Notes under the pieces: generated by a model
Database searches by the model: none
The model's input: the letters and a program-made list of their open reading frames with translations, nothing else
What the model was told of the DNA's origin: nothing
Shown: positions 7,523 through 43,270 of the stretch, piece by piece
How positions within the stretch are numbered: position 1 is the stretch's first letter
Layout of the letters: every line of letters begins with the position of its first letter
From: Phormidesmis sp.
GTDB lineage: Bacteria; Cyanobacteriota; Cyanobacteriia; Leptolyngbyales; Leptolyngbyaceae
DNA: 64,000 nucleotides
Assembly (NCBI GenBank): GCA_965248535.1
Contig: CBDFJR010000005.1
Location: forward strand, 1,280,001 to 1,344,000
Direction: 5' to 3'
Program-made: the position numbers and the translations under genes

Positions 7523-10500
7523 TTATACCGCGATCGCGACTCCCTCGATCGCTTCATCTGCCGTCTCATATAAATCACGCAACTGCGCCAACTTTTCTGG
7601 TTCGGGTTGCCAAAAGCCGCGACCGTTTGCTTCTAACATCCTACTAACGATGTTGCGGAAGGCTTCAGGGTTTGCCGATCGCAGTTTGTTCGCCATTTCT
7701 GAATCCAGTGCGTAAGTTTCGGCGGCTTGGTCATAAACCCAGGATTCTTGAAAATCGACGGTGCCGCCCCAGCCGATTAAAGCAGTCATGCGCTGAGAAA
7801 TCTCGTAAGCCCCACCAGAACCCTGATCTGCCATGGCTTCTGCCCATTTGGGGTTCAGCAGTTTTGTGCGATATTCTAGCCGCAGCAAATCGTCTAAATC
7901 GCGAGGGGTCGTGTCTTTTGAGAAACTTTCGACAAAACTCGCCTGCACTTTTTTGCCCTGCTGCTTTTCGGCGGCTCGTTTTAATCCGCCCGTGTTGGCA
8001 TAATATTCCTGAATGTCCGTCAAGCCGTATTCGACCGAATCGATTTCTTGAATGATCCGATCGGTGGTGTTTAGCAGCGATTCTAAGATCAGCGATCGGT
8101 CTTGTCCTTTATCGGTTCTGCCATAGCTAAATCCGTTGCGACTTTGCCAGGTTTGTGCCAACTCATCGCCCGATTCCCAGTTGCCAGCAACGACCCGATC
8201 GTTAACGAGAGAACCGTAGTCTCCAGATGGATTTGAGAATAGACGTGCTGAAGGATTTTCAACGCCTTGAGCAATGAGTGGTTTAACGTGTTTGCGAACA
8301 AAATTCTGATCGTCTGGTTCGTCAGCATCGGCAGCGCGCTGAAACAAATCGTCTAATAGCTCAATGATATTGACAAAGCTATCTCTAAAAATGCCTGAGA
8401 GATTGGCTAATACATCAATTCGGGGATGCCCAACTTCTGCTAGCGGTCTTAACTCATAGCGAACAATTCGCCCAGTGCCTTCTTTAACGGGTTCTGCACC
8501 GACTAGCTCTAACAAAATGCCGAGCGATTCGCCTTTGGTTTTAATCGCGTCTAAGCCCCACAGCATCACTGCCACAGTTTCGGGATAGGTGCCGTGCTGC
8601 TGCAAATGTTGCGTGAGAATTTGTTGGGCGATCGCTCTCCCTCGTTCATAGGCCGCAGGCGACGGCATCCGATAAGGGTCGAGGGCATGAATGTTTCGTC
8701 CGGTGGGCAAAACTTCTGCCCCGTCGCGCAGCAAATCGCCACCGGGAGCGGGCGGAATATACTCGCCATTCAGTCCTCGCAGTAAGTTAGTGAGTTCGTC
8801 GGTATTTTGAGCCAGCAGATCGCGAATTTTTGATGCTTCTTCAGTCTCCGCCGCGCCGTCGAAATAGGCGTTGAGATAACTGTCTAATTCTTCAGGGTTG
8901 GGCGGTTCACCAAGGACGTGTAACCCTGATGAAAATAGACGATTTTCGAGAATTTGCAGATAGTCGTAGAGAGTGATTAAGTAGCGATTAAATGCCTCGT
9001 TACTAAAAAGTTTAACGGTCTCGATCGTAACCCCCATGCCCATTTTTTGAGCGTCTATAAACGGACAATCTGCATCAAGTCCGGTGTCGCTAATCTTCTT
9101 GCAAATCACCTCTTTAAGAGCGTAATTTTTATCAGAATCTTCGCGATATTCAGCAATTAAATCGCGCAGGGTAACGAGTTCTTTATACAATCCCGCTCGA
9201 CCGTAGGGCGGAACATTGTGCGAGATCAAAACCCCATAGCCGCGCCGCTTGGCCAGAATTGATTCAGAGGGATTGTTGGCTGCATAAATGTAGAGATTGG
9301 GCAAATTTCCGAGCAAGACATCTGACCACGAATACCCCGTGTTGCCTAATGGAGAACCAGGGAGCCATTCAACCGTGCCGTGCATCCCAAAGTGAACGAT
9401 CGCGCTAGCCTGAAAGTCTTTTTGTAACCACTGATAAAAGGCCGCATATTGGGGATGAGGGGTGAGATCGCGATCGAACATTAATCGCATTGGGTCGCCC
9501 GAAATGCCCAACGGTGGCTGCACTCCAATCCACACGTTGCCAAACTGAACTCCGCCCCAAGTTAGGGCTTCACCCATTGTTTTGATGCCGCTTCCCGATA
9601 GCGATTTCCACTGTTTTTCAATGCGTGAAGTGAGGAGATAACCTAACCATTTTTCTAGAGTCCGAACGTTAATCGACTGGTGTGTAGAATCATCCGTTTG
9701 GAATTCACCGATCCATTCATCGGCTTGTTTCACTTGACGGATAATTTCTTCGCCATCTTGGGGCAACTCTCCGATCGTGTAGCCCTGATCTTTAAGCGCT
9801 TGCAGAAGTTTAAGCAGCGACTTTGGCACATTCAACAAAGCGGCAGTGCCGACGGCTCCATAGCCCGGTGGAAAGCCATATAAGATAATCGCGAGTTTAC
9901 GATCGCTGACCGATTTGCGCCGCAGATCGATCCATTTTTGCAGCCGTCCGGTGAGCCGTTTGACCCGTTCGGGAATCAGGTAAATCTTCTCTCCGACCAA
10001 ACCGCCTAGAGGAATGGTATCGATCGCACCATCTAACTCCGGTAGCGCATAAAGCACCACGCTTTGCAAACCGCCAATTCCCTGCCGCGTCCAAGAGTGA
10101 ATGTCTTGAATCAACAGTGGTGCCGCCACTAAATAAGGAATATTTTTAGCGCTGAGAATGCGTTTTGCCACTTCGGTTTGACGACCCGCTTCCATTGAGC
10201 CAGCCGGCCCCCCGACTAGTGGAAAGCCAATCGTAGAGACGATCGCATCCACCTTTGCCGCTTCACTAGACAGTGATTTTGTCTCTATAATGCCTTGCTG
10301 ACGTTGTGCTTGTTCATAGTCAGTCGTCATCAAATCGCGCACTGCTACATGACCCTCAACCCCGTTGATAAAAATCGGTAGCGGAATCAAATTTGCCTGC
10401 TCAAACTGTCGAATTAGTTGGGCAATATAAGGCTGTTTTGTAATAACGTGCTTTCGATAAAGCAAAATTCCTACTACGGGAAGATTTTTGGATTGACGAG

Positions 10501-11170
10501 TTTTATACCAACTCAAATATTGTTTAGGAGACTCAAAATAGCCCAAATAATCTGGGTGCAGCAATCCGATATTAGGAGTCTCGATCGGAGGCGCAATGTC
10601 TCCAACATCTAACCCTAAATACTTCTCTGCCAAAACCCAAAACAGAGCCGCTACATTTTCTGATCCTCCTGCATTCCAATAGCCATAAATAATCAGCCAG
10701 TTCCGCAGATCTTGCACCTTTTGACCGGGCAGAAATTTCAGTAATTTTGGACCAATTTTGAGAAAGCTAATATAGCCCGCCAGTTTATCTTCTTCTCGCC
10801 CATTGCCAAACTTATCGAGAATGAATTTAACAGGTTTTGGCATCCCCTTAGGCTTGTCTCCAATGGCAAACTTGCCGAGTTGGGTGAGGCTCATCAACTC
10901 TAACGCCGACTCAAACACTAACCGCATGGGGATTTGCTGCACTCGCTGCCGCAGCCACATCACCTGATCATAGTCAAACAGCAAACTTCCAAAAAACGCA
11001 TCCGCCCCTTGCAGCGCCGATTCAACTTGGGTGGGCTGAAGAGTGAGATCACGATCGCTAAACACCAAAATCTCTAAGTCTGGGCATCGCATCTGAGCTA
11101 CTTGAGCCGCCTGACGGTAAAGATCCGCATTAAAAGACTCAAACCCAGCGATTAAAACAATCCGTTTCAT
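7523..11170 (-). CDS. bchH: Magnesium chelatase subunit H homolog (short BchH-type paralog)
   Basis: CobN/Mg-chelatase motifs HFGMHGTVEWLPG, LPTGRNIHALDP, DLSGIFRD-like NLSGIFRD, RTKLLNPKW; 1215 aa. Confidence 0.88.
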   Translation of the reverse strand: MKRIVLIAGFESFNADLYRQAAQVAQMRCPDLEILVFSDRDLTLQPTQVESALQGADAFFGSLLFDYDQVMWLRQRVQQIPMRLVFESALELMSLTQLGKFAIGDKPKGMPKPVKFILDKFGNGREEDKLAGYISFLKIGPKLLKFLPGQKVQDLRNWLIIYGYWNAGGSENVAALFWVLAEKYLGLDVGDIAPPIETPNIGLLHPDYLGYFESPKQYLSWYKTRQSKNLPVVGILLYRKHVITKQPYIAQLIRQFEQANLIPLPIFINGVEGHVAVRDLMTTDYEQAQRQQGIIETKSLSSEAAKVDAIVSTIGFPLVGGPAGSMEAGRQTEVAKRILSAKNIPYLVAAPLLIQDIHSWTRQGIGGLQSVVLYALPELDGAIDTIPLGGLVGEKIYLIPERVKRLTGRLQKWIDLRRKSVSDRKLAIILYGFPPGYGAVGTAALLNVPKSLLKLLQALKDQGYTIGELPQDGEEIIRQVKQADEWIGEFQTDDSTHQSINVRTLEKWLGYLLTSRIEKQWKSLSGSGIKTMGEALTWGGVQFGNVWIGVQPPLGISGDPMRLMFDRDLTPHPQYAAFYQWLQKDFQASAIVHFGMHGTVEWLPGSPLGNTGYSWSDVLLGNLPNLYIYAANNPSESILAKRRGYGVLISHNVPPYGRAGLYKELVTLRDLIAEYREDSDKNYALKEVICKKISDTGLDADCPFIDAQKMGMGVTIETVKLFSNEAFNRYLITLYDYLQILENRLFSSGLHVLGEPPNPEELDSYLNAYFDGAAETEEASKIRDLLAQNTDELTNLLRGLNGEYIPPAPGGDLLRDGAEVLPTGRNIHALDPYRMPSPAAYERGRAIAQQILTQHLQQHGTYPETVAVMLWGLDAIKTKGESLGILLELVGAEPVKEGTGRIVRYELRPLAEVGHPRIDVLANLSGIFRDSFVNIIELLDDLFQRAADADEPDDQNFVRKHVKPLIAQGVENPSARLFSNPSGDYGSLVNDRVVAGNWESGDELAQTWQSRNGFSYGRTDKGQDRSLILESLLNTTDRIIQEIDSVEYGLTDIQEYYANTGGLKRAAEKQQGKKVQASFVESFSKDTTPRDLDDLLRLEYRTKLLNPKWAEAMADQGSGGAYEISQRMTALIGWGGTVDFQESWVYDQAAETYALDSEMANKLRSANPEAFRNIVSRMLEANGRGFWQPEPEKLAQLRDLYETADEAIEGVAIAV

Positions 11171-11278
11171 GCCCTAAGTGTCAAAAAGATCTGATGTCTC
11201 AATCTTAAAGCAGTCTCCCCTCAGAAAGGCACCTCTCATCAGCAGGAGGAGATCCAGACTTTGATCGGATCGAATTGA

Positions 11279-11307
11279 TTGACAGTTCATCTTAATTCTT
11301 TTATAGT
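11279..11307 (+). promoter_or_regulatory. Sigma70-type promoter of the parM-like operon
   Basis: TTGACA (11279-11284) - 17 nt - TATAGT (11302-11307); AAGGAG RBS before ATG 11392. Confidence 0.75.
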
Positions 11308-11319
11308 ACCTGTGTACTA
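11304..11319. promoter_or_regulatory. LexA box overlapping the -10 element
   Basis: TAGTAC-CTGT-GTACTA with perfectly palindromic arms; fits the cyanobacterial consensus RGTACNNNDGTWCB. Confidence 0.8.
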
Positions 11320-11391
11320 ACTGGGCAAATCTGAAGGCAATCGGGGACATATGATCGCAGCCCTTTCCGCATCAGTATAAAGGAGAAACCA

Positions 11392-12462
11392 ATGACCAGT
11401 GTAGAAACCAGACAGGCAAAGGCCAAAAAAGAAATGACGATCGCCACGCCAGATCTTCCTGCAATAGAATCGCCCGTTCGCTCTGCGCCAACCCGATCGC
11501 TGGCTCTCGATGGGGGAAACTATGATCTCAAGTTTTGGGATGGCACCGGAATTCCTAAAGCGATTCGCTCGATTCGATTTCAGGTTCCCCAGGGTCGTGA
11601 TCCCGTCCGTTATTCCGATAGTTCTCCGCTCGTAGAGTTGCCTGACGGCACGCGCTATCACTTTGGCACCCAGGCTTATAAATATCGCAGACAGCAGCAA
11701 ACCGTGGTCGAAAATAAGGTTGACCTGGCCCGGCTGCATCTCTATGCCTGTTTAGAAGCAGACCGATCGGTTGAAGATCTCTGCCAGTTTCATCTTCAGC
11801 TTCACGTCTCAACCCCCGAACCTGCTAAAAGTCAGGAGTCGTTGAGGTCACAACTGATGGGCGTGCATGAGTTTAAGCGCAACGGCATTCCGTTTAGGGT
11901 GACGGTCGATCAGGTTGAGGTTGAGCGAGAAGGGTTGGGTTCCTATCGCTACGCGCAGCGGCTAGGGCTGATCGCCGAAAGTGGCTATACGATCGTGGTC
12001 GATATTGGCGGCGGCACCTGGATCACTCGCTTAATGGATGCCGAAGGAGACGTGATTGACGAAAACGTGATGGATCGCGGCGGCGCTTATGAACTAGCAA
12101 CAGCCATCAGTTTTGATAAGCGCTTGACCAATGTGTTATCCACCACTGCCGACCCCGCGATCGTCATGGATGGGTTTAAAACAGGACACAACTACGCCGA
12201 TACAGGGCTATCGTGGTCGCTCTGGCTTGACGACTATCTTGACCCCTGGTTTAAAGGCATCTTTCAGACGATCAAAGCGCAATACACCCCTTATATGGCC
12301 AGGGTGACGCGGTTTTTGGTAACTGGCGGAAGCTCTCATCTGATCGCCGAACGGCTGGCGGGGCGCAAGTTATTTGCGGTCATGCCCGAACCTCAGTTTG
12401 CCAACGTTCGCGGTCTATTTCCCATTAACGAAGGATTGCAGCTATGTATGACAACAAAGTGA
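11392..12462 (+). CDS. ParM/StbA-family actin-like ATPase
   Basis: Actin-fold motifs: phosphate-1 LALDGGNYDLK, connect-1 EREGLG, phosphate-2 VVDIGGGT, adenosine LVTGGSS, connect-2 PQFANVRG. Confidence 0.88.
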   Translation: MTSVETRQAKAKKEMTIATPDLPAIESPVRSAPTRSLALDGGNYDLKFWDGTGIPKAIRSIRFQVPQGRDPVRYSDSSPLVELPDGTRYHFGTQAYKYRRQQQTVVENKVDLARLHLYACLEADRSVEDLCQFHLQLHVSTPEPAKSQESLRSQLMGVHEFKRNGIPFRVTVDQVEVEREGLGSYRYAQRLGLIAESGYTIVVDIGGGTWITRLMDAEGDVIDENVMDRGGAYELATAISFDKRLTNVLSTTADPAIVMDGFKTGHNYADTGLSWSLWLDDYLDPWFKGIFQTIKAQYTPYMARVTRFLVTGGSSHLIAERLAGRKLFAVMPEPQFANVRGLFPINEGLQLCMTTK

Positions 12463-12686
12463 GACTCAGCGAAGATGTGCTAGAAAAGGCAGAAATGATT
12501 GCCTCAGAATGGGGTTTGAAGAATGCACGAGCCGCGATCGAGGCCGTTTTTCGCAAATATGCCGACGATTATTTGTATGGACGAACCCAGTTTGGTGGTG
12601 GAGATACGATCGTGCCCTTTAGACAGGTGAATTCGTCTAGCGATTGTGATGCATTAGACGAGTTAGACGAGTTGTTAGGGCTTTAA
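12444..12686 (+). CDS. Small ParR-like partner protein (putative ribbon-helix-helix N-terminus, acidic C-terminal helix)
   Basis: Overlaps the ATPase gene by 19 nt, with AAGGA upstream; beta-alpha-alpha-like KVRLSEDVLEKAEMIASEWGLKNARAAIEAVFRKY; tail ALDELDELLGL. Confidence 0.65.
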   Translation: MYDNKVRLSEDVLEKAEMIASEWGLKNARAAIEAVFRKYADDYLYGRTQFGGGDTIVPFRQVNSSSDCDALDELDELLGL

Positions 12687-12801
12687 CCTCGTGGATTAAA
12701 TCAGATCACTGGCACAGGCAATGGGCATGGCATGGCTCTGCCCTAGCGCGGAGGGTTCCTGCCATCGCCCCTGTTTCTTGATTTGTTTGCTGAAGATGAG
12801 G

Positions 12802-13533
12802 TTATGTGTCTTGAGATAGCTCATCCCACAGAGAAGTGGTTTGGCGCAAGCTGAGGTGATTTCCGTTGCCCAAAATTAGGTGATCTAAAAGCGGAATGTC
12901 TAAAAACTTTGCTCCTGTTAGCAGTTGGCGAGTCAGGGCAAGGTCTTCAGGGCTGGGTTCGACATTGCCAGAGGGGTGATTGTGGGCGATGATCACGCGA
13001 GTTGCTCCCTGACGGAGCACTTCTCTAAAAATGTCGCGGGGATGGGCAAGGGTTTCTGTCGCCGTGCCGATCGTGATAATTTGCGTCCCGATCAGACGGT
13101 GTTTTGTGTCGAGCAGCAGCACGGCAAATCGCTCCTGGTTTTGCCACATGAGATCATTACTCAACGCTGCCGCCGCCACTGCGGGGTCATCAATCACCGT
13201 TTTTTCGGGCGGTCGAGATTGATAGACGCGCTTGCCAAGCTCGATCGCTGCCAAAATCGTAGTGGCCTTTGCCGGGCCAACCCCCGAAATCTTGATCAAT
13301 TGTTGAATGCTGACCTCTCGCAAAACGCCGAGGGGATCGCGCTGATGCTGGCTCAATTCTTGCAGCATGAATTGCCCTAACCCAACGGCCGAAAGCTTTC
13401 CGGCTCCCTGCCCGGTGCCCAGTAAGATCGCAATTAACTCTGCTGTAGAGAGAATCTTGGCACCCTGGGCCATCAACCGTTCGCGGGGTCGCTCGCTCAT
13501 CGGCAAATCGGCGATTCTCAGGCTGTAGGTCAT
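12802..13533 (-). CDS. radC: RadC-family JAB-domain protein
   Basis: ERPRERL, GVGPAKA Hh[20 protein letters not shown] and LLDHLI motifs. Confidence 0.95.
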
Positions 13534-13821: not shown

Positions 13822-14445
13822 TTAAAGCGTGCCATAGCCTCGCCAAACGCCCACCAAAACGCCCTGCACATCTACTTGGGCCGCCGCAACTTCGGTGACA
13901 GGGTAGAGGTCTCGATTGGAGTTTCCGGGTTGCAAGATCACCTTGCTGCCTTTTCTTTGAAAATATTTCAGCGTCGTTTTTCCTTCGACTCGTGCGGCAA
14001 CGATCGCGTTGTTTTTCAAAATCTTGGGGTCGGGCACTGGCTGCATGATCACGACATCGCCGTCATCGATCAGCGCATCGATCATGCTGTGCCCCCGTAC
14101 TTTTAAGGCAAAATGCTGGGGCTTGAGCAGCAGGCTAGAGAGATCGAGGTGCTCAACTTCAGTGTCAGAAAAGTTTTCTACGAGGCTGGTTGCGGCGATC
14201 GCGCCTAAAATTGGCACTCCTTTGGGTTCGGGGTGCAGCAGTCGAATGGTGCGGGCCTGCCCTTCTGTCCAGATGATATAGCCTTTATTTCGCAGGTGTT
14301 CTAAGCGGCTCTGCACGGGGGCGGGAGACTTAAGATTCATCGCGGCCATCATCTGCCGAATCGAGGGAGAATGCTGATGTTGATGAATATAGTCGGCTAA
14401 CCAGTCATAGAGTTGTCGCTGCGGGTCGGTGAGAGATTCCAGCAT
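13822..14445 (-). CDS. lexA: LexA repressor (Ala-Gly cleavage site replaced by Ala-Thr)
   Basis: Winged-helix SPSIRQMM..SPAPVQSRLEHL; S24 peptidase GHSMI and TLK; cleavage region reads GAIAATSL. Confidence 0.92.
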   Translation of the reverse strand: MLESLTDPQRQLYDWLADYIHQHQHSPSIRQMMAAMNLKSPAPVQSRLEHLRNKGYIIWTEGQARTIRLLHPEPKGVPILGAIAATSLVENFSDTEVEHLDLSSLLLKPQHFALKVRGHSMIDALIDDGDVVIMQPVPDPKILKNNAIVAARVEGKTTLKYFQRKGSKVILQPGNSNRDLYPVTEVAAAQVDVQGVLVGVWRGYGTL

Positions 14446-14470
14446 AAGTAGTACAAATGAGAAAAGATTT

Positions 14471-14544
14471 TAGAACATTTGTATCACGTATTAGTACAAT
14501 CGTCTAGGGGTTTAAACAAAAGATTTTTTAGAACAGTTGTATCG
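14471..14544. promoter_or_regulatory. Two degenerate LexA boxes upstream of lexA (putative autoregulation)
   Basis: TAGAACATTTGTATCA (14471-14486) and TAGAACAGTTGTATCG (14529-14544), plus TAGTAC half-sites at 14449 and 14492. Confidence 0.55.
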
Positions 14545-14654
14545 TTCACTTTAACGGTTAGGTAGCAATCTAAATCAAGATTGCGATCGTTCTTAATGCA
14601 GTTCGTTTGCGATAATGGGTGGGTTGATAAACCGCTGTTTTGATTCGGTGACTT

Positions 14655-15575
14655 ATGACTGCTGCTGCAACCACCCCTCGTCTCGCCTCTCGCGTTGTAA
14701 ATCGCATTCTGGCGATCAAGCCTTTGTTTAATCTGGCAAAATATCAGGCGCGTCAGATGATGATTAAGCGGGCAGCGTCGATCGGGGTGCAGTGGGTTCA
14801 AGAAGCTGAGAGGCTACGATCGCGCGATTGGACAGCCGGATTTAATCAAGTCAACAATCCCAATTTGGTCTATCCCGATTATTATTTGCGTCCCTTTCAC
14901 GCCTACAACGAGGGCAACTTGGGCTGGCAGCCTGCTAGCGAAGTTGAAGTGGCTGCTTACTCAGTTCATGCCAGAATCTGGAAAGATGCCGGAGCCGAAG
15001 GCGATGCCCGACTGCGCCAGAGCTATCACGATCATTTAAAAGGTCAACTGCCCAGCCTACCTAACGACATTGTGGACTTAGGCTGTAGCGTTGGCATGAG
15101 CACCTTTGCGCTCCAAAAGACGTTTCCTAATGCCAAGATGACGGGAGTCGATTTATCGCCTTATTTTCTGGCGGTGGCCGACTATCAAACTCAACGTTTA
15201 CACTCACAGAATCCGCCGACTTGGGTTCATGCTGCTGCCGAATCAACAGGTTTACCCTCCGCCGCGTTTGACTTAGTGTCTGCTTGTTTGATGTTTCATG
15301 AACTGCCTCGAACGGCGGCGATCGCGATCTTGCAAGAAGCCAAACGACTGCTGCGACCCGGCGGGCACTTAGCGATTATGGATATGAATCCTAAGTCAGA
15401 AATCTATGCCAAGATGCCGCCCTATATTCTGACGCTGCTCAAAAGCACTGAGCCGTATATAGATGATTACTTCTCGTTTGATCTTGAGGGCGCGATCGCC
15501 CAGTCAGGCTTTACTCACCCTACCGTGACCTGCAACACGCCACGCCACCGCACGATCGTGGCTCAGGTTAAATAG
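14655..15575 (+). CDS. Class I SAM-dependent methyltransferase (UbiE-like fold)
   Basis: IVDLGCSVG, GVDLSP, FHELP and RLLRPGG motifs. Confidence 0.85.
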   Translation: MTAAATTPRLASRVVNRILAIKPLFNLAKYQARQMMIKRAASIGVQWVQEAERLRSRDWTAGFNQVNNPNLVYPDYYLRPFHAYNEGNLGWQPASEVEVAAYSVHARIWKDAGAEGDARLRQSYHDHLKGQLPSLPNDIVDLGCSVGMSTFALQKTFPNAKMTGVDLSPYFLAVADYQTQRLHSQNPPTWVHAAAESTGLPSAAFDLVSACLMFHELPRTAAIAILQEAKRLLRPGGHLAIMDMNPKSEIYAKMPPYILTLLKSTEPYIDDYFSFDLEGAIAQSGFTHPTVTCNTPRHRTIVAQVK

Positions 15576-18385: not shown

Positions 18386-19663
18386 TTAAGTTGGGTCATA
18401 AATCGAACCCATAAACAAAATTTCACCCGTTTTGTTATCTCGAATCGCACAGAAAAAGGGACGATCGACAATCATCACAAACGGCGCGACTTCCTGCTGA
18501 ATAGACGTAGCGCGAATGCCCACCGAGGTCACGGCGGCGGCTTCGGTGCCTTCTTCATTCACATCGATAAAGGTTTTGTGTTTGACTGCATCAATGCGCG
18601 TCGAAGTCGTGCTCAGGTCAGAAAAATCTGCCTTTGATGGGTCGAAAGCCACGCCCATTCCCAAGCCTGAAAGGGAATTTTTAAGGTCAATTTCATAATC
18701 CATCTTGAAGCGGGGCAGTTGAATCGAGCCTTCGCGCTTGCTGAAGGTTTTCATCCAGGTTTGCCAATTTTCGGCCGTCAGCGTCTTTTGAAACTCTGCA
18801 AGACTGGAGGTTGACTTGGGCAAGAAGACATACAGACTGGTGCGCCCCTTACCGTAAGGGAGGCTGACCGCTTGAAACTGCGGAGTTTCGGCATAGCGAT
18901 AGTCGCCTTTTTGAGCCATCATCGGGTGCTGTTTTTGACGACCGTTTGCCAGAGTAAAGGTTTGATCGGTGGTTTGGCTCTTGTCAAATTCAGTCATCCA
19001 CTTGCCTTTGAAATAGATGGCGTTGATCAAAACCATGACTTGACTGGCATCCAGACGATCGACGATTTCGCGAATTTTGCCCTGAGTATTTTTCTTTACC
19101 CAGTCGTTGATCTGCCCCGGTGCTGTGGGGTCGGCAAAATCGAGAGACGTGACCTCGGCCGCATAAAATTTTTGATTGCGCTGGATAAATTCGGGCTTAA
19201 AGTCTACGCCCTTTCTAGCCCAAAGCGAGTTAGCGATCGTCAACTTCACGTTTGGGTCATTGCTTTCGAGCAGAGTTTTGAGCGTGGCATTAGCCTGATT
19301 GATCTCTAAAAGGCTCATGCCCTGCATTTCTAAAGCTCTAGCCATCGCTTGCTGAGTGTCGCCCCCCGCCCCGTTGTAGGTCATGGAGAGCGCGATCGCG
19401 ACGCTCATAGGCGACACAAACACGTTCTTTTTGCCATCTTGCTTGAGAATTTCGGAAAACAGCTTGAAGCTAAAGCGCGTGTTGGCCTCGATCAGTTTGG
19501 GATTGACCACTAGTTTAGAGTGAGCCGCGATCGGGCTTGAGGATGAGTTAATCGGTCTGGGAGTGCGGTTTGAGCCTGCCGCCGTTGAGCAACTGACCGA
19601 GGTGAGGGTGACGATCGCGGCCAAAACAGCGACTCCGATTCGGGTCATTAAAAGGTTGCTCAT
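18386..19663 (-). CDS. Serpin (serine protease inhibitor), probable lipoprotein
   Basis: NVFVSPMS, NAIYFKGKW, hinge EEGTEAAAVT, DRPFF..ILFMG; signal peptide ending in TSVSC. Confidence 0.93.
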   Translation of the reverse strand: MSNLLMTRIGVAVLAAIVTLTSVSCSTAAGSNRTPRPINSSSSPIAAHSKLVVNPKLIEANTRFSFKLFSEILKQDGKKNVFVSPMSVAIALSMTYNGAGGDTQQAMARALEMQGMSLLEINQANATLKTLLESNDPNVKLTIANSLWARKGVDFKPEFIQRNQKFYAAEVTSLDFADPTAPGQINDWVKKNTQGKIREIVDRLDASQVMVLINAIYFKGKWMTEFDKSQTTDQTFTLANGRQKQHPMMAQKGDYRYAETPQFQAVSLPYGKGRTSLYVFLPKSTSSLAEFQKTLTAENWQTWMKTFSKREGSIQLPRFKMDYEIDLKNSLSGLGMGVAFDPSKADFSDLSTTSTRIDAVKHKTFIDVNEEGTEAAAVTSVGIRATSIQQEVAPFVMIVDRPFFCAIRDNKTGEILFMGSIYDPT

Positions 19664-19735
19664 CGGGATTTTGTGGTTACAAGTTGTCTCTACCTTTCGC
19701 TACGGTAGTGGATGAATGATTTCCGGGCAGGCTGG

Positions 19736-21421
19736 TTACAATTTTGGCGACGCGGGCACCGTCCACCAAGCCAACGCATAGGGCTGAGTCGGCTGATTGA
19801 CGCGCTGACGAAACACAACCCGAATTTTATAGCGTCCGGTAACCGGAATCGGCTGAAAAATGTGTTCAACGCTGTCTAAGTTGCTGATCGACGAGGCAAC
19901 ACTCTGACGAATGTCTTGATCTTCGGCGTGCATCAGGTAAAGGTCGAGATTATTTAGCCCCCGATCGCTAAATCCTTCTCCTAAGTCAAACTGACGGTTT
20001 TGATTGCGATCGTTCAACTCCACCAGTCGATCCCACGCCAGGGTTAGCGCGACATAGCTGCCCTGCTGCAACGGGTTTGCCAACACATAATCCTGAAATG
20101 AGGCTTTTCCTAAATCGAGGGTTTCATAATTCCACCCGATCGCGGGCACGGGGTTTTCGGGCTTCCACTCGCCAGGGCTAAACTGCTGATAAGCCCGAAA
20201 CGCATTTAACTGACCTGCCCCCATTTGAATGTTGAGCGGCACTTGCGGATTTTTGTAAGCATCTGACTCTAGCCAGGTTTGATTATTTTTTTCTAATATC
20301 GTGCGCGTCATGCCCAAAAATTGACCGTTGCCGCTGTCTTTAATTTTGTCGGCGGAATTGATCATTACGGCTTTCATCACCTCGTGGTGGCGGGCATCTA
20401 ACCCCCACGGCAGTTTGCAGCCTGCGCCGCGTTTGCAGCTAGCCCGCAGTTGACGATCGCCAAACTCTTGCAACAGAGCGACTGTTGCAGTGACGTGAGG
20501 GGCAGCAAAACTGGTGCCGATCGAGGTCGTTAACTTGCCTTCTAAATTGGCGACCGAGACTTTATTGCCGGGTGCCACGAGGGAGATGCCGCGCCGTCCT
20601 CCGAGATTTGTTTCAACGCCATCGTTGCGTTTGAGAATGCGAGGAGACACGTCACCGATATTAGAAAAATCAACTTTGGCATAAACGCCCTTTAATCGTG
20701 TGGTGAATGCAATATTCATGCCGTTGTAATTGTCAGTCGGAATGGGAATGCCGCCTTTACCCTGATTGCCTGCCACTACATAGACGACATCATGCACCCG
20801 CGCCGACCAGTCGATACACAGCGTCAGCAGCGCGTTGCCGTCTAGTTTGGCTCCCGATCGTGGGTCTTGCTGAAGGGCTTCACCAAAGCTGAAGTTAATC
20901 GCTCGCACATCGCCGCCATTTTGCATTGCCAAATATTCAGCAGCCAGACACTCTTCGGGCTGCCCACCCTGATGAGGAATGGCCGCCGCCGAAGCATAGA
21001 GTCGGGCATTGGGGGCAACGCCTTTAATTGCTTTGCTGTTGCCGATGAGAATGCTGGCCACTTGAGCCGCGTGAGTATCCAGATGGGTGTTGCCCTTGGC
21101 AGGTTGATCGCGAAAAAATGCGCGCCCGATCGTCACCACTTGATTCCGGTTTGCCACCTTATCTAAACCGCTTTGGGGAGGTCGCCCGATCTCGACTTGC
21201 CCGATCGCGATCTTGCGTCCCGTCAAGTTATAGGGTGGCCTTTGTAGTTTTAGAGCATCAATGCCATCTTGGGCGATCGAAGACTCTTCTAGAGATGCGC
21301 CTTTTACGCCTCCGGCTAGGGTTGCCCAAGCCAAAACTCCACAGACCAACCACCGTTTATGAATCCGCCGCACTGCAATCTGCTCCCGATTGGCCACGTT
21401 TATCTTCGCTTGACCCTTCAA
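19736..21421 (-). CDS. S8 subtilisin-like serine peptidase, secreted
   Basis: DTHAAQVAS (His), VAGN oxyanion Asn, GTSFAAPHV (Ser); N-terminal signal-like segment; start uncertain. Confidence 0.85.
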   Translation of the reverse strand: MKGQAKINVANREQIAVRRIHKRWLVCGVLAWATLAGGVKGASLEESSIAQDGIDALKLQRPPYNLTGRKIAIGQVEIGRPPQSGLDKVANRNQVVTIGRAFFRDQPAKGNTHLDTHAAQVASILIGNSKAIKGVAPNARLYASAAAIPHQGGQPEECLAAEYLAMQNGGDVRAINFSFGEALQQDPRSGAKLDGNALLTLCIDWSARVHDVVYVVAGNQGKGGIPIPTDNYNGMNIAFTTRLKGVYAKVDFSNIGDVSPRILKRNDGVETNLGGRRGISLVAPGNKVSVANLEGKLTTSIGTSFAAPHVTATVALLQEFGDRQLRASCKRGAGCKLPWGLDARHHEVMKAVMINSADKIKDSGNGQFLGMTRTILEKNNQTWLESDAYKNPQVPLNIQMGAGQLNAFRAYQQFSPGEWKPENPVPAIGWNYETLDLGKASFQDYVLANPLQQGSYVALTLAWDRLVELNDRNQNRQFDLGEGFSDRGLNNLDLYLMHAEDQDIRQSVASSISNLDSVEHIFQPIPVTGRYKIRVVFRQRVNQPTQPYALAWWTVPASPKL

Positions 21422-38864: not shown

Positions 38865-39938
38865 ATGGCGAGATTGAAAGTCGGGCTGTTATTTGGCGGA
38901 TGTTCGGGAGAGCATGAGGTGTCAATTGCGTCAGCACGGGCGATCGCTCAGGCCCTTAAACTGGATGCGAATGCTGATCGCTACGACGTGTTGCCGTTCT
39001 ACATTCAAAAAGATGGCTATTGGCAAGCGGGCGATCTGGCTCAACAGGTTTTAGAGGAGGGCACAGCAGTCGCCTCGGCAGACAGCCATCAAACGCGCTG
39101 GCAGTTTCCGACCGAGGTCAGCCAAGTTGAGGTCTGGTTTCCGGTGTTGCACGGCCCCCATGGTGAAGACGGCACTGTGCAGGGGCTGCTTAAGCTGATG
39201 CAGGTGCCATTTGTGGGTTCAGATGTGCTGGCATCGGCGGTGGGCATGGATAAGATCGCGATGAAAACGGCTTATGCCCAGGCGGGCTTGCCCCAGGTGA
39301 ACTATTTGGCCGTGACCCGATCGCAAATCTCCTCAAATCCCAGCACTTTTTCCCAGCTTGGTGAGCAGATTGAGGCAGAGTTGGGCTATCCCTGTTTTGT
39401 CAAACCTGCCAATTTAGGATCATCGGTCGGCATCTCAAAAGTGCGAAATCTGGCCCAGTTAGAAGCCGCGTTGCACAATGCTGCTAGCTACGATCGTCGC
39501 GTCATTGTTGAAGCGGGCGTGATTGCCAGAGAAGTCGAGTGTGCGGTTCTCGGCAATGATCAGCCTCAAGCTTCGGCGGTTGGTGAAATCACCTTTGAAA
39601 GCGACTTTTACGATTATGAAACCAAATACACCGCAGGGCAGGCAGCGCTGACTATCCCGGCAGATCTGCCAGAGTCCGTTACGGCCCAGATTCAGGAGAT
39701 GGCGATTCAGGCATTTGTAGCGATCGACGGGGCCGGACTCGGACGAGTCGATTTCTTCTATGTTGAATCGACTGGAGACATCTTCATCAACGAAATCAAC
39801 ACCTTCCCAGGGTTCACCGCCACGAGTATGTATCCTCAGCTTTGGGCCGCCACAGGCGTTCCCTTCTCAACGTTGGTCGATCGCCTGATCCAGTTTGCGC
39901 TAGAGCGCCACGACAGCCCGCGTCAACAACCCGTTTAG
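38865..39938 (+). CDS. ddl: D-alanine--D-alanine ligase
   Basis: [24 protein letters not shown] and NEINTFPG motifs. Confidence 0.96.
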
Positions 39939-40495
39939 GCTAGATCGGTCTGCCCGACGCGCTCCCACCAGCGATTGAGGGGAAAGTAGACAACAGGTGC
40001 CCATAAACTGCTGAGAATAGCTGAACTCAGGGCAACAAACTGGTGATAAGTCCAGATTTCGAGCAGCGATCGTCCCCCTTGCAGGCTGTATTGAATCGCC
40101 ATCACCGTCTCAGCTAGCACCGCCATCCCAAACACGATCAGCGCTACTGAGATGAAATCTTCTTCAATGTAGCGCTGCTTTTGCAGTCGAGCCGTCAAAG
40201 CCCCAATCAGCACCAAGCTCACCGCATGGGTCGGAAACGGAGAGGTCATGCCGTCTTGCAGCAAACCCAAGACCAACCCTGCCATCGCCCCTTGAAACAT
40301 TGTCCGTTTGACGCTCCAAGCGACGACCCAAATCAGTAGCCAGTTGGGGCCGATGCCTGCCAACTCCATGCCGGGTAAGCGCGTTGGTAAAATCATTAGG
40401 CAGAGCAGCACCGAAAGGGCATTTACGCCCCAGTTGACGAGGGGGCGCGAAATTGGGTGGCGATCGAACAGATCCTCTAACGCTGAAGTATTCAT
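39935..40495 (-). CDS. mreD: Rod shape-determining protein MreD
   Basis: Polytopic membrane protein with GLLQD, downstream of mreC. Confidence 0.9.
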
Positions 40496-41307
40496 GGAGT
40501 TGCTTCTGGAGAAGGCGTTGCAGCCGGAGTTGGGGCAGCGGGGGCCGTCAGTCGGGGGTCGCCCAAGTTAGCAGAATTAGGATAGATGGTTGCCCACTCT
40601 AAGTAGTTAATGGGGGCAGATAGCTCGATCACGGCTTCGGGTGCCGGACTTTTGTTGAGATCGACTGACTCAATGCGCCCGATCGGGATGCCCGCCGGAA
40701 ATAATTGGCTAAATGATGACGTAGACACTACATCGCCTCGACGCACATCGGGAACCTTCTCAAAAAACTCCATCACGGCTCGGTTGGCTGACTTGCCGCG
40801 CATAAACCCCATGTAGCGACTGCGGCTGATCGTCACACCGACGCGACTGCTAGGATCACTCAACAACAGCACCTGACTTGTATGAGACGTGACATTGCTA
40901 ACGCGGCCCACCAGCCCACCCGGACTGAGCACGATCGACCCGACCCGAATGCCATCTTGACTGCCCCGACCCAAAATCACCTGCTGCCACCAGTGGTCAG
41001 CGCTGCGACCAATCACCGAGGCTGCCACCCCCGGAGTCTTTTTAGCTGAAACAAACCCTAGAAGCTCTTCTAGGCGCTGATTGCGGCTTTCTAGCTCGAT
41101 CAGACGCTGCTGAAGTTCTTGCGCTTGGGCGTTGGCTAGTCGATCTGGTTGGGTAGGGTTGCTGTGAAATGGGCGCGTGACCAGTTGATAGGTTTCTAGA
41201 AGCACCCCTCCTTGAGTCTGGCGGACGAAGAGAGCCATCCCTAAAGCCACACCAGCCAAGGTGGCCTGAATTCCATAGCGTTCCCACCAGCGTTGCAGTG
41301 CGTACAT
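40492..41307 (-). CDS. mreC: Rod shape-determining protein MreC
   Basis: TM + coiled coil + GLVGRV, GDVVSTS..FPAGIPIGRI. Confidence 0.93.
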   Translation of the reverse strand: MYALQRWWERYGIQATLAGVALGMALFVRQTQGGVLLETYQLVTRPFHSNPTQPDRLANAQAQELQQRLIELESRNQRLEELLGFVSAKKTPGVAASVIGRSADHWWQQVILGRGSQDGIRVGSIVLSPGGLVGRVSNVTSHTSQVLLLSDPSSRVGVTISRSRYMGFMRGKSANRAVMEFFEKVPDVRRGDVVSTSSFSQLFPAGIPIGRIESVDLNKSPAPEAVIELSAPINYLEWATIYPNSANLGDPRLTAPAAPTPAATPSPEATP

Positions 41308-41424
41308 TCAACCTCGTATGTTGGCTGGTCAACTTTACAAGAGTATACCGTTTCAGTTCCAGCGTTCAGATCGTTTTTCGCAACTTATATCTCAGCATCA
41401 GGAAATAAATTGCGAAAAACTTGT

Positions 41425-42462
41425 CTAGCGAGAGGGGCGAGTGCTAAAGACACGCTCTAGCTGCTTGAAGTTTTCTAAGACTCGCCCAGTGCCTAAAACG
41501 ACGCAGCTTAGCGGGTCAGCCGCCACATGAACCACAATGCCTGTTTCGTGACTGATCAGCGTGTCGATGCCTTTAAGAAGTGCGCCACCTCCTGCCAGCA
41601 TGATACCGCGATCGATAATATCGGCTGCTAGCTCAGGCGGGGTGCGTTCCAAAGTCCGTTTGACGGCATCGACGATCACAGACAGTGGCTCTGACATGCT
41701 CTCGCGAATTTCAGGACTCTTGATCGTGACGGTGCGGGGGAGACCTGAGAGCAGGTGGAGTCCTCGAACTTCCATCGTCGCTTCATCATCTTGTGTGGGA
41801 TAGGCAGACCCGATCGAGATCTTAATCTCTTCAGCAGTTCGTTCACCCACTACCAGGTTGTGAACTTTTTTCATGTAGTGGATGATCGACTCACTCAGTT
41901 CGTCTCCGGCCACCCGCACTGACTCACTGAGGACGGTTCCTTGCAAACTGAGGACGGCGACCTCGGTCGTGCCGCCACCAATGTCAATGATCATGTTTCC
42001 AGTCGGTTCGGCCACGGGTAAGCCGGCCCCGATCGCTGCCGCTACGGGTTCATCAATTAAGTAGACCTCTCGTGCCCCAGCTTGAGAAGCCGCTTCCATC
42101 ACAGCGCGCCGCTCTACCCCAGTCACCCCACTGGGAATGCCAATTACAACGCGGGGAGAAACCAGCGTTTTTCCTTCGTGCACCCGTGTGATGAAGTGCT
42201 TGAGCATTAATTCTGCGGTATCAAAGTCGGCGATCACGCCGTCGCGTAAGGGGCGGAGTGCGACAACATTTCCAGGGGTGCGCCCCAGCATTCTTTTTGC
42301 ATCTTCGCCGACCGCCAAGGGGATTTTTTCGTTTTGATCCATCGCGACGACGGAAGGCTCTTGTAGAACAATGCCTTTACCTGACACGTAGACGAGAGTG
42401 TTGGCGGTGCCCAGGTCTATACCCATGTCCCGGGATAAGGAGAAGCGACTGAAAAGACCCAC
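41425..42462 (-). CDS. mreB: Rod shape-determining actin MreB
   Basis: [17 protein letters not shown] and LAGGGALL motifs. Confidence 0.97.
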
Positions 42463-42809: not shown

Positions 42810-42823
42810 AGTACAAATGTATT
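42810..42823. promoter_or_regulatory. LexA box upstream of ssb
   Basis: AGTACAAATGTATT (one mismatch to consensus) just 3' of TTGCTT-N17-TAAAAT. Confidence 0.65.
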
Positions 42824-42901
42824 GATAGATCGATACATTGACTCCGCTAAAGGAAGAATCTTCCTCTAAGATAAAGACATTTGACAGGTGAGCAAAGCAC
42901 T

Positions 42902-43270
42902 ATGAGCCTCAACGTGGTAACTCTGGTTGGGCGTGTGGGCGGTGACCCAGACGTGAAATATTTTGAGTCGGGCAGCGTTAAATGTCGGCTGACGCTAGCA
43001 GTCAACCGTCAATCTAAAAACAATGATCAGCCCGATTGGTTCAATCTAGAACTTTGGGGCAAGCAAGCCGACGTTGCGGCTAACTACGTTCGCAAAGGTA
43101 GCTTAATCGGGGTCAAAGGCTCTCTAAAATTTGATAGCTGGAAAGATCGAAACACAGGAGTCGATCGTACCTCGCCTGTGGTGCTGGTCGATCGACTGCA
43201 ACTGCTAGGGTCAAAGCGTGATTCTGAAGGCGGTGGGGCAGAATCTCCAGGCTACACCGATGACTTTTAA
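42902..43270 (+). CDS. ssb: Single-stranded DNA-binding protein
   Basis: LNVVTLVGRVGGDP, YVRKGSLI, acidic tail ending DDF. Confidence 0.94.
   Translation: MSLNVVTLVGRVGGDPDVKYFESGSVKCRLTLAVNRQSKNNDQPDWFNLELWGKQADVAANYVRKGSLIGVKGSLKFDSWKDRNTGVDRTSPVVLVDRLQLLGSKRDSEGGGAESPGYTDDF

Follow-up and report, generated by a model that had tools for sequence, protein, structure and literature searches.

A chromosomal ParM-type actin-like protein and its small adaptor behind a LexA-type operator in Leptolyngbyaceae

An actin-like protein and its small partner

We looked at a stretch of 64,000 nucleotides of the cyanobacterium Phormidesmis sp. (contig CBDFJR010000005.1, positions 1,280,001 to 1,344,000; hereafter the window), a genus that the NCBI taxonomy places in the Leptolyngbyales. 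In this window, the gene of an actin-like protein (ALP) overlaps by 19 nt the gene of a small partner, called here the adaptor, and the two genes lie behind a promoter that is overlaid by a palindromic LexA-type operator (Table 1). A first-pass annotation, made from the letters alone, had described an actin-type protein of 356 aa overlapping a partner gene of 80 aa, and both reading frames were located as claimed, together with the LALDGGNYDLKFW motif in the ALP. The ALP has the three motifs expected of an actin fold (phosphate-1, phosphate-2 and adenosine), and the residues of the nucleotide-binding motifs (D40/G42/N43, E180/G181, D204/G206-G208/T209 and G312/G313) were invariant in 39 aligned orthologs. 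The Pfam family ALP_N (PF17989) matched the window ALP with an E-value of 6.5e-5 and 23.6 bits, which is under its gathering score of 26.3, and was matched by 39/39 orthologs at E<=0.01 (best 4.6e-9); NCBIfam gave only a faint ParM match. When the AlphaFold model of the ALP (pLDDT 75.7) was compared with known structures by Foldseek, it matched pSK41 ParM, Ta0583, C. botulinum ParM, CorM, Alp7A, R1 ParM and Alp12 with E-values from 3e-17 to 1e-13, at identities of 12-18% to these ParM and Alp structures. Ahead of the first strand, residues 1-33 form a basic N-terminal tail that is predicted to be disordered, with a pLDDT <50 over residues 1-19 and 25-30. Its start is conserved as MTxxTRQxRxxKE, and its length is about 20 residues in most orthologs. 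Altogether, the alignment and the model indicate that the ALP is an ATP-binding actin-fold protein of the ParM/Alp superfamily to which a disordered basic tail has been added.

The adaptor gene, co-translated with that of the ALP, was found directly downstream of it in 69/72 loci, and the remaining three loci end before the adaptor position. In the predicted structure of the adaptor, a short strand is followed by helices at residues 10-23 and 28-49, a disordered linker and a C-terminal helix at residues 69-78. A set of 68 orthologs shows conservation of the N-terminal domain and of the final 13 residues (CEALxELDDLLGL), and the linker varies in length and in sequence. As modelled, this layout is that of ParR-type adaptors, a ribbon-helix-helix (RHH) domain plus a tail. 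The adaptor belongs to no Pfam or NCBIfam family, with scattered weak Pfam matches only, and its model retrieved nothing from the PDB structures at E<=0.001. A search of the PDB sequences with the adaptor profile returned Lon protease matches, which were judged spurious.

We also predicted the complex of the ALP with the adaptor, using custom-made alignments. The pair scored 0.58; the highest score among three controls was 0.00. This support is weak: the mark that the pair passed was reached by 116/157 solved complexes and by 2/215 mismatched pairs, and at scores of 0.60 or below it was reached by 18/157 solved complexes and by both of the passing mismatches. The runs agreed in at least 71% of the contacts, and the partner had a pLDDT of at least 62. 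Since a complex of ParM with a ParR peptide has already been solved (4a62), the pass may reflect likeness to that structure.

A LexA-type operator over the promoter

The operator, AGTACCTGTGTACT, fits the pattern RGTACNNNDGTWCB exactly and also carries the exact half-sites of AGTACWNWTGTACT, which is given in the available text of PMC3091678 as the consensus derived for cyanobacterial LexA boxes. The perfect palindrome AGTACN4GTACT was found once in the window, at the operator, and five times in the 5.03-Mb genome, where 4.7 copies are expected from composition; all five lie outside long open reading frames (ORFs). We surveyed 68 upstream regions, those of 67 loci and that of the window, five further loci having no upstream sequence. 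In the best site found in promoter context, the half-sites matched at 10/10 bases in 32 regions, at 9/10 in 29 and at 8/10 in 7, and among 271 control windows taken from the same loci 0, 2 and 14 reached these three scores. At least nine half-site bases were found in 61/68 upstream regions, as compared with 2/271 controls. The 4-nt spacer of the operator occurred in 34 different versions among the same regions, and the information profile peaked at TTGACA, TATAGTAC and GTACTAA, with a flat spacer. Directly 5' of the box, TTGnnW-N16-18-TAn was present in 54/68 regions. The promoter-operator architecture is conserved while the spacer drifts. The LexA-box promoter that the first reading had placed ahead of the operon proved to have a perfect box over the -10 element, and the operator is conserved among the orthologs.

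A pair of conserved motifs follows in the leader. In 48/67 loci, GGGGAC was found at most 60 nt 3' of the box; the rate among 10,765 control windows was 0.6%. The motif sits at +3/4 after the box in 21 loci and at +20-24 in 27. It occurs once or in two copies about 21 nt apart, and a remnant, TGGG, is seen at the first of the two places. GGGGACA is a candidate for an adaptor-binding (parC-like) site or for an element of the 5' leader. An Rfam search of positions 10900-13000 gave one chance-level match and no family for the leader.

The LexA protein of this lineage differs in its cleavage region. Where Nostocaceae-type LexA reads IAAGG (five genomes), AIAATS was read in 29/30 lexA orthologs of the family; both members of the catalytic dyad, Ser (in GHSM) and Lys (in TLKYF), are present. 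The genome holds a second LexA paralog (C5:1186921-1187574) that is 50% identical and reads AAHS at this site. The promoter of the paralog carries TTGACA...TAGAGTAGTAC plus a TAGAGT/ACTCTA inverted repeat, and many genomes of the family have 2-4 LexA-like genes. Because LexA is devoid of the Ala-Gly self-cleavage site, control by LexA need not mean induction by DNA damage. In Synechocystis, LexA is described, in the available text of two papers, as non-cleavable, not SOS-related and without control of repair genes (PMC3091678; PMC5101192).

The DNA-binding domain of the lineage LexA is nearly identical to that of the five Nostocaceae-type genomes, whose own lexA genes have AGTACTAATGTTCT-type boxes at about -42. 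In the lineage studied here, GATACAANTGTTCT is conserved upstream of lexA, usually twice (window 13822-14445 on the minus strand and 14446-14660). Moreover, AGTAC-N4-GTATT was found about 70 nt 5' of ssb in 6/6 genomes of the genus, again with drifting spacers; in some other genera, the ssb box occurs in altered forms. As boxes also stand before ssb and lexA, the operator motif is not private to the ALP operon. Altogether, these comparisons favour LexA over the adaptor as the protein that would bind the palindrome. Elsewhere in the genome, the four remaining perfect palindromes and the intergenic sites fitting the strict pattern precede genes for a GST, a DUF2721 protein, a sepF/HtrA-like protease pair, a kinase, a PIN protein and HTH proteins, and a classical SOS regulon was not recovered from the box matches of the genome. 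Given these sites and the cleavage region of LexA, 'LexA-controlled' is better supported than 'DNA-damage-induced'. One strict-pattern site, AGTACTTTTGTTCT, lies at C2:988678 in the region from which the genes for SepF (cell division) and for an HtrA-like protease diverge. Another sequence, GGTACAAAGGTTCC, is present in three copies, spaced by 126 nt, within an ORF of 199 aa on the minus strand (C5:1174579-1174844); this is a tandem repeat that fits the LexA pattern by chance.

Distribution, origin and surroundings of the operon

The ortholog of the nearest named relative, Phormidesmis priestleyi, is 96% identical to the window ALP. We looked for the ALP in 61 genomes of the same order, which all belong to a single GTDB family (Leptolyngbyaceae), and found an ortholog in 58 of them with 65-96% identity, always one per genome, including genomes that consist of a single contig. 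The three genomes with no ALP match are 99, 99 and 94% complete, and an internal stop was seen in one of the 58 copies (G425). Among 401 genomes sampled across the phylum, matches at the ortholog level were restricted to five genomes of three families. In family f7, which holds genomes bearing CorM, the ALP of the chromosomal CorMR system, 11 of the 45 genomes gave weak ALP matches (<=32% identity) and 34 gave none. A search of a public protein collection returned 275 clusters at E<=0.001; the 120 matches listed are all 67-93% identical, and among the matches listed the named ones are thin filamentous cyanobacteria. The operon lies on the complete chromosomes CP166621, CP170648 and NZ_CP120836. 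For three pairs with unsaturated dS, the ALP had a ratio of nonsynonymous to synonymous substitution rates (dN/dS) of 0.039-0.067, and the adaptor one of 0.038-0.19. Read from these genomes, the pair is present as a single chromosomal copy that is inherited vertically and is under strong purifying selection. This is in accordance with the domesticated chromosomal ParMR-type module proposed earlier, and the homologs are neither mostly plasmid-borne nor patchily distributed.

Relatives of the ALP were then sought on mobile DNA. Among 72,556 plasmids, 69 records matched, all from filamentous cyanobacteria and all with less than 60% identity; no phage record matched. The best plasmid match was ParM/StbA of pMIC7113.05 from Allocoleopsis franciscana PCC 7113 (NC_019741.1; 46.8% identity). 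In a quick maximum-likelihood tree of 46 ALPs, which has SH-aLRT supports only, many long branches and no resolution at the deeper nodes, this plasmid ParM is sister to the chromosomal ALP family (SH-aLRT 99). The plasmid pair has the same gene order as the chromosomal operon, and its partner ends with ..NALDALLSA, an acidic C-terminus similar to that of the chromosomal adaptor. It differs from the operon in being plasmid-borne, in an ALP without N-terminal tail, in a promoter that has a different inverted repeat instead of a LexA box, and in a partner of 109 aa whose N-domain sequence is unrelated to that of the 80-aa adaptor. Of 1.84 billion cluster representatives, 257 matched the ALP at E<=0.001 and 41 at E<=1e-30. 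Short fragments aside, the nearest ones measure 310-362 aa, share 33-46% identity and are mostly aligned from ALP residue ~34, which means that they have no N-terminal tail. Ten of these nearest representatives stand for clusters of 1-4 members, and the few that are named are all cyanobacteria. By these sequence comparisons, the chromosomal ALP family is compact and clearly set apart, and its relatives resemble plasmid ParMs.

CorMR has been described in Anabaena and is restricted by its authors to Nostocales and Oscillatoriales; a single, vertically transmitted incorporation into the chromosome was inferred for it (preprint 10.1101/2025.06.27.661541, sections 5 and 11). We recovered CorMR in five Nostocaceae-type genomes as chromosomal ALPs of 381-400 aa with a long disordered N-terminus, each then followed by a protein of 159-179 aa starting with MFQWSKKVVK, and one recovered CorM matched PDB 9RMI (CorM) over its full length (E 7.5e-224). 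With the ortholog whose sister ORF gives this 9RMI match as the CorM reference, BLASTP of the window ALP reached E=0.019 over 44 aa. Neither phmmer nor a profile of the 39 sequences reached 9RMI at E<=10, though 9RMI was in the library, and the adaptor and the CorR-type partner share no sequence. In the tree of 46 ALPs, CorM groups with another cyanobacterial type (SH-aLRT 96), apart from the clade of the window ALP. The first-pass annotation had supposed that the ALP belongs to a different clade from CorM, and these results bear this out. CorM orthologs were detected in 2/61 family genomes. These two (G426 C372:13183-14208 and G453 C21:21288-22313) have 60-64% identity to Nostocaceae-type CorM and come from fragmented assemblies (410 and 510 contigs) in which contamination and real presence are indistinguishable.

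Some further observations were made on actin-like loci. The Phormidesmis genome has a second such locus (C2:2386838-2388400; L117 1486-3032), with an ALP split in two overlapping ORFs of 253 and 144 aa, possibly by a frameshift, and then a 146-aa partner ending with DDMLGSLDDAMG. This second ALP, which is not part of the tree, is the best CorM match of the genome (25% identity, E 5e-11), and its adaptor resembles, by eye, that of a Nostocaceae-type chromosomal pair (L111/L114), the ALPs of which are placed with CorM in the tree. A distance of about 10 kb separates corM and lexA in two genomes that belong to one Nostocaceae-type genus (G206 C1:2142468/2153438 and G260 C1:3095071/3105576). The two genes are far apart in three other genomes of that family, and the proximity is probably a coincidence.

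As the first reading had stated, the operon is flanked by a chelatase-type gene on one side and by radC and lexA on the other, and mreBCD is found elsewhere in the window. Pfam scans showed an otherwise housekeeping content (mreBCD, ssb and recA), and none of 59 scanned window ORFs belongs to an integrase, transposase, replication-initiator or conjugation family, in agreement with the absence of mobile and replication genes noted at first. In contrast, the significance given to the radC-lexA neighbourhood did not survive comparison with related loci, where lexA adjoins the operon in 0/72 cases, radC in 11/72 (12/73 including the window), and the chelatase and methyltransferase genes in 0/72. 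The adjacency of operon and lexA in the window is therefore a coincidence; elsewhere in the genus, the genes of the ALP and of LexA are on separate contigs. Beyond the adaptor no neighbour is conserved, the commonest neighbour family being present in 14/73 loci, and those that recur, for instance rplI-dnaB, are ordinary genes, with no mobile-element genes among them. Gene neighbourhood was thus rejected as a clue to function. The density of CGATCG, the HIP1 core, was likewise dropped as a sign of long residence: the operon has 7 copies, or 5.4/kb, against a genome mean of 4.46/kb, and 0 copies of the full GCGATCGC, against 1.02/kb genome-wide, so that the level claimed as evidence is that of the genome background.

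Two observations concern the stretch more generally. A bacterial serpin (425 aa) is encoded beside a subtilase (561 aa) at window positions 18389-21421 on the minus strand. In ice metatranscriptomes (4 runs of one study), shares of 0.04-0.06 of the stretch were found, and three of the four runs contained 14 short contig pieces, 30-144 nt long on the stretch and mostly 90-99% identical to it, which touch the ALP gene, the overlap of ALP and adaptor genes, and the upstream neighbour. These pieces were discarded as evidence of expression or regulation because they come from relatives, do not show start or strand, and may derive from DNA, which is possible in such libraries.

Table 1. Positions of the features discussed, in window coordinates or protein residues
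Feature	Position	Strand	Description and basis
Sigma-70-type promoter	11279-11307	+	TTGACA-17 nt-TATAGT; matches 11/12 consensus positions
Palindromic LexA-type operator	11305-11318		AGTACCTGTGTACT; overlaps the last 3 bases of the -10 element and the expected transcription start
Leader motif pair	11322-11328 and 11343-11349	+	TGGGCAA and GGGGACA, 21 nt apart; conserved
Shine-Dalgarno sequence	11380-11385	+	AAGGAG, 6 nt 5' of ATG; read off the sequence
ALP gene	11392-12462	+	356 aa; ORF listing
Adaptor gene	12444-12686	+	80 aa; ORF listing
Adaptor N-terminal domain	residues 1-49		RHH-like; model
Adaptor C-terminal conserved segment	residues 68-80 (helix 69-78 = 12648-12677)	+	CDALDELDELLGL; model and alignment
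CobN/Mg-chelatase H-type gene	7523-11170	-	flank; Pfam scan
radC	12802-13533	-	flank; Pfam scan
lexA	13822-14445	-	flank; Pfam scan
mreBCD	39938-42462	-	intact, same window
LexA-like box	42810-42823		AGTACAAATGTATT; ~70 nt upstream of ssb (42881-43267), divergent from mreB

Interpretation and comparison with known systems

The reading that we prefer, with a probability of about 0.6, is that the pair constitutes a conditionally expressed machine made of a filament and a DNA adaptor, which derives from a plasmid partition system of type II, has been fixed as a chromosomal operon and is independent of CorMR. A type II ParMR-like module would have become a fixed chromosomal operon in Leptolyngbyaceae and in a few neighbouring thin filamentous lineages. 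LexA dimers sitting on the operator would hold the strong promoter off or low, and a drop in LexA occupancy would let both proteins be made. The ALP would then polymerise, the C-terminal helix of the adaptor would dock on it as ParR does on ParM, and the DNA-binding domain of the adaptor would tie the filament ends to DNA, possibly at the GGGGACA leader motifs. In this way, the system would move or position DNA (chromosome copies) conditionally and not constitutively. A bolder proposal is that of a LexA-gated 'emergency spindle' in a polyploid filamentous lineage, that is, a ParM-type motor with its DNA adaptor whose strong promoter would be shut by LexA and opened by one particular stress only. 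It would then gather chromosome copies, drive them apart or reposition them, for example during recombinational repair or for partition after division arrest, and would have evolved independently of the constitutive CorMR. We mention it as a speculation that is rather unlikely to hold.

Several points weigh against the preferred reading. A repeat finder detected no parC-like iteron array up- or downstream of the operon. Classical RecA-triggered derepression is doubtful because LexA reads AIAATS and its paralog AAHS; no classical repair gene was found after the strict box matches in the genome, and no LexA box was seen within 130 nt 5' of recA. The first-pass annotation had the system wired into the LexA regulon under stress: the LexA part of this proposal is supported by the conserved LexA-type operator, and the link to SOS or damage is uncertain, given the AIAATS of LexA and the lack of repair genes among the boxes. 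Moreover, the RHH name of the adaptor fold rests on weak matches to CopG (phmmer E 1.2; Foldseek E >2, with an rmsd of 1.3-1.4 Å over 35-38 columns), and CopG, the closest of these matches, binds a pseudo-symmetric element at its own promoter.

What CopG does at its promoter would suit another explanation, in which the palindrome is the operator of the RHH-like adaptor itself, used for autorepression like R1 ParR/parC and with no link to LexA, so that the operon would be a self-regulated chromosomal partition-type module. The parC site of R1 overlaps the promoter of its own operon and is bound by ParR, and the palindrome overlaps the promoter in the same manner. The pMIC7113.05 promoter has a different inverted repeat, which shows that such modules have operators of their own, and the other perfect sites of the genome do not precede classical SOS genes. 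We nevertheless think that the adaptor is an unlikely owner of the palindrome. The half-sites are exactly those of the LexA consensus derived independently for cyanobacteria, as given in the available text of PMC3091678, the recognition domain of LexA is conserved with genomes whose lexA bears the same type of box, similar boxes with drifting spacers stand before ssb and lexA in the same genus, and GGGGACA is available as a site for the adaptor.

A function like that of CorMR, namely a cortical, membrane-associated cytoskeleton for cell shape in a lineage devoid of CorMR, with LexA control as a side feature, seems to us somewhat less probable again. The distributions are complementary, with CorM in 2/61 and the ALP in 58/61 family genomes and no ortholog-level ALP in the 45 genomes of f7; every named host is filamentous; and a disordered N-terminal tail is also present in CorM, unlike in plasmid ParMs (preprint 10.1101/2025.06.27.661541, section 5 and legend of Fig. 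S1C). Against such a role, the ALP has no detectable sequence relationship to CorM (E=0.019 over 44 aa; 9RMI missed) and falls in a separate clade, the adaptor has 80 residues against 159-179 and no room for an amphipathic helix, and mreBCD is intact in the window. LexA repression of a shape system from a consensus promoter would also be odd. By far the least credible explanation is that the pair is left over from the partition module of an integrated plasmid or prophage, as a decaying or selfish remnant without host function. The nearest relatives are indeed plasmid ParMs, the neighbourhood is not conserved, and an SOS-linked actin-like pair, AlpAC, is known from prophage CGP3 (available text of PMC4446434), but a remnant would hardly be kept as a single copy in 58/61 genomes of a whole family at a dN/dS of ~0.04-0.07, with an internal stop in 1/58 copies (G425) and with no mobile-element genes in the window or among the recurrent neighbours.

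We compared the operon with known systems. Like ParMRC of R1/R100, it consists of an ALP and then a small adaptor, of the RHH type by prediction, whose C-terminal helix is expected to bind the ALP, and it has a regulatory DNA element over the promoter. ParMRC is plasmid-borne, whereas the window operon is chromosomal in a housekeeping context; R1/R100 ParM shares about 14% identity with the window ALP in structural alignment and gave no phmmer match; and the promoter of ParMRC has ParR iterons where that of the window has a LexA-like element, with no iteron centromere found. AlpC/AlpA of the Corynebacterium glutamicum prophage CGP3 is also made of an actin-like protein and a DNA-binding adaptor and appears early after mitomycin C, linked to SOS (available text of PMC4446434). 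There, AlpA is encoded upstream and binds 24 alpS repeats, and the pair serves phage DNA replication (same text); AlpAC differs from the window pair in being prophage-encoded, and direct control by LexA is not reported in that text (PMC4446434). With the cyanobacterial LexA regulon, the operon shares an operator that matches the published consensus and sits over the promoter. Among the differences, LexA here has no Ala-Gly site, as reported for Synechocystis (PMC3091678; PMC5101192), and the available text of PMC3091678 has 0 mentions of ParM or actin. In the literature searched, with subscription journals outside its scope, no link between a cyanobacterial ParM or actin-like protein and LexA was found; the CorMR supplements may list the family ('yellow'/'salmon' clades).

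CorMR resembles the operon in several respects. Both are chromosomal, vertically inherited ParMR derivatives of filamentous cyanobacteria; both have an ALP with a disordered N-terminal tail and an adaptor in which a linker joins a domain of RHH type to a C-terminal helix that binds the ALP (for the window adaptor, the RHH type and the binding are predicted). CorMR has no parC-like iteron array, and the repeat finder detected none beside the window operon. However, CorM and the window ALP have 17% identity in structural alignment and sit in different clades of the tree, and the window adaptor, with its 80 aa, is about half as long as CorR (159-179 aa). CorR has an N-terminal amphipathic helix of 10 residues and the window adaptor has none: almost all of 68 sequences start with MYDNK[VI]RLS, which by inspection and in the model leads directly to the strand of the RHH domain, and since MYDNKVRLS enters the predicted strand at once, there is no room for such a helix. 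Furthermore, a LexA-type operator covers the window promoter, and the main text of the CorMR preprint has 0 mentions of LexA or SOS. The host lineages are different as well. Judged from these sequences, the window pair is not CorMR and would be a separate domestication.

Chromosomal ParMR systems were considered rare until CorMR, which has been repurposed for cell shape. If our reading is true, the ALP operon would be a second incorporation of ParMR into the chromosome, in another filamentous lineage. It would be distinguished by an adaptor that is DNA-binding in type and has no membrane helix, by a disordered ALP tail acquired independently, and by a consensus promoter under a LexA operator, which is unreported for any ParMR system in the literature searched. 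The operon would also offer a concrete candidate LexA target in a group where the role of LexA is poorly understood. Set beside CorMR, it would provide a natural comparison of which features turn a plasmid motor into a host system.

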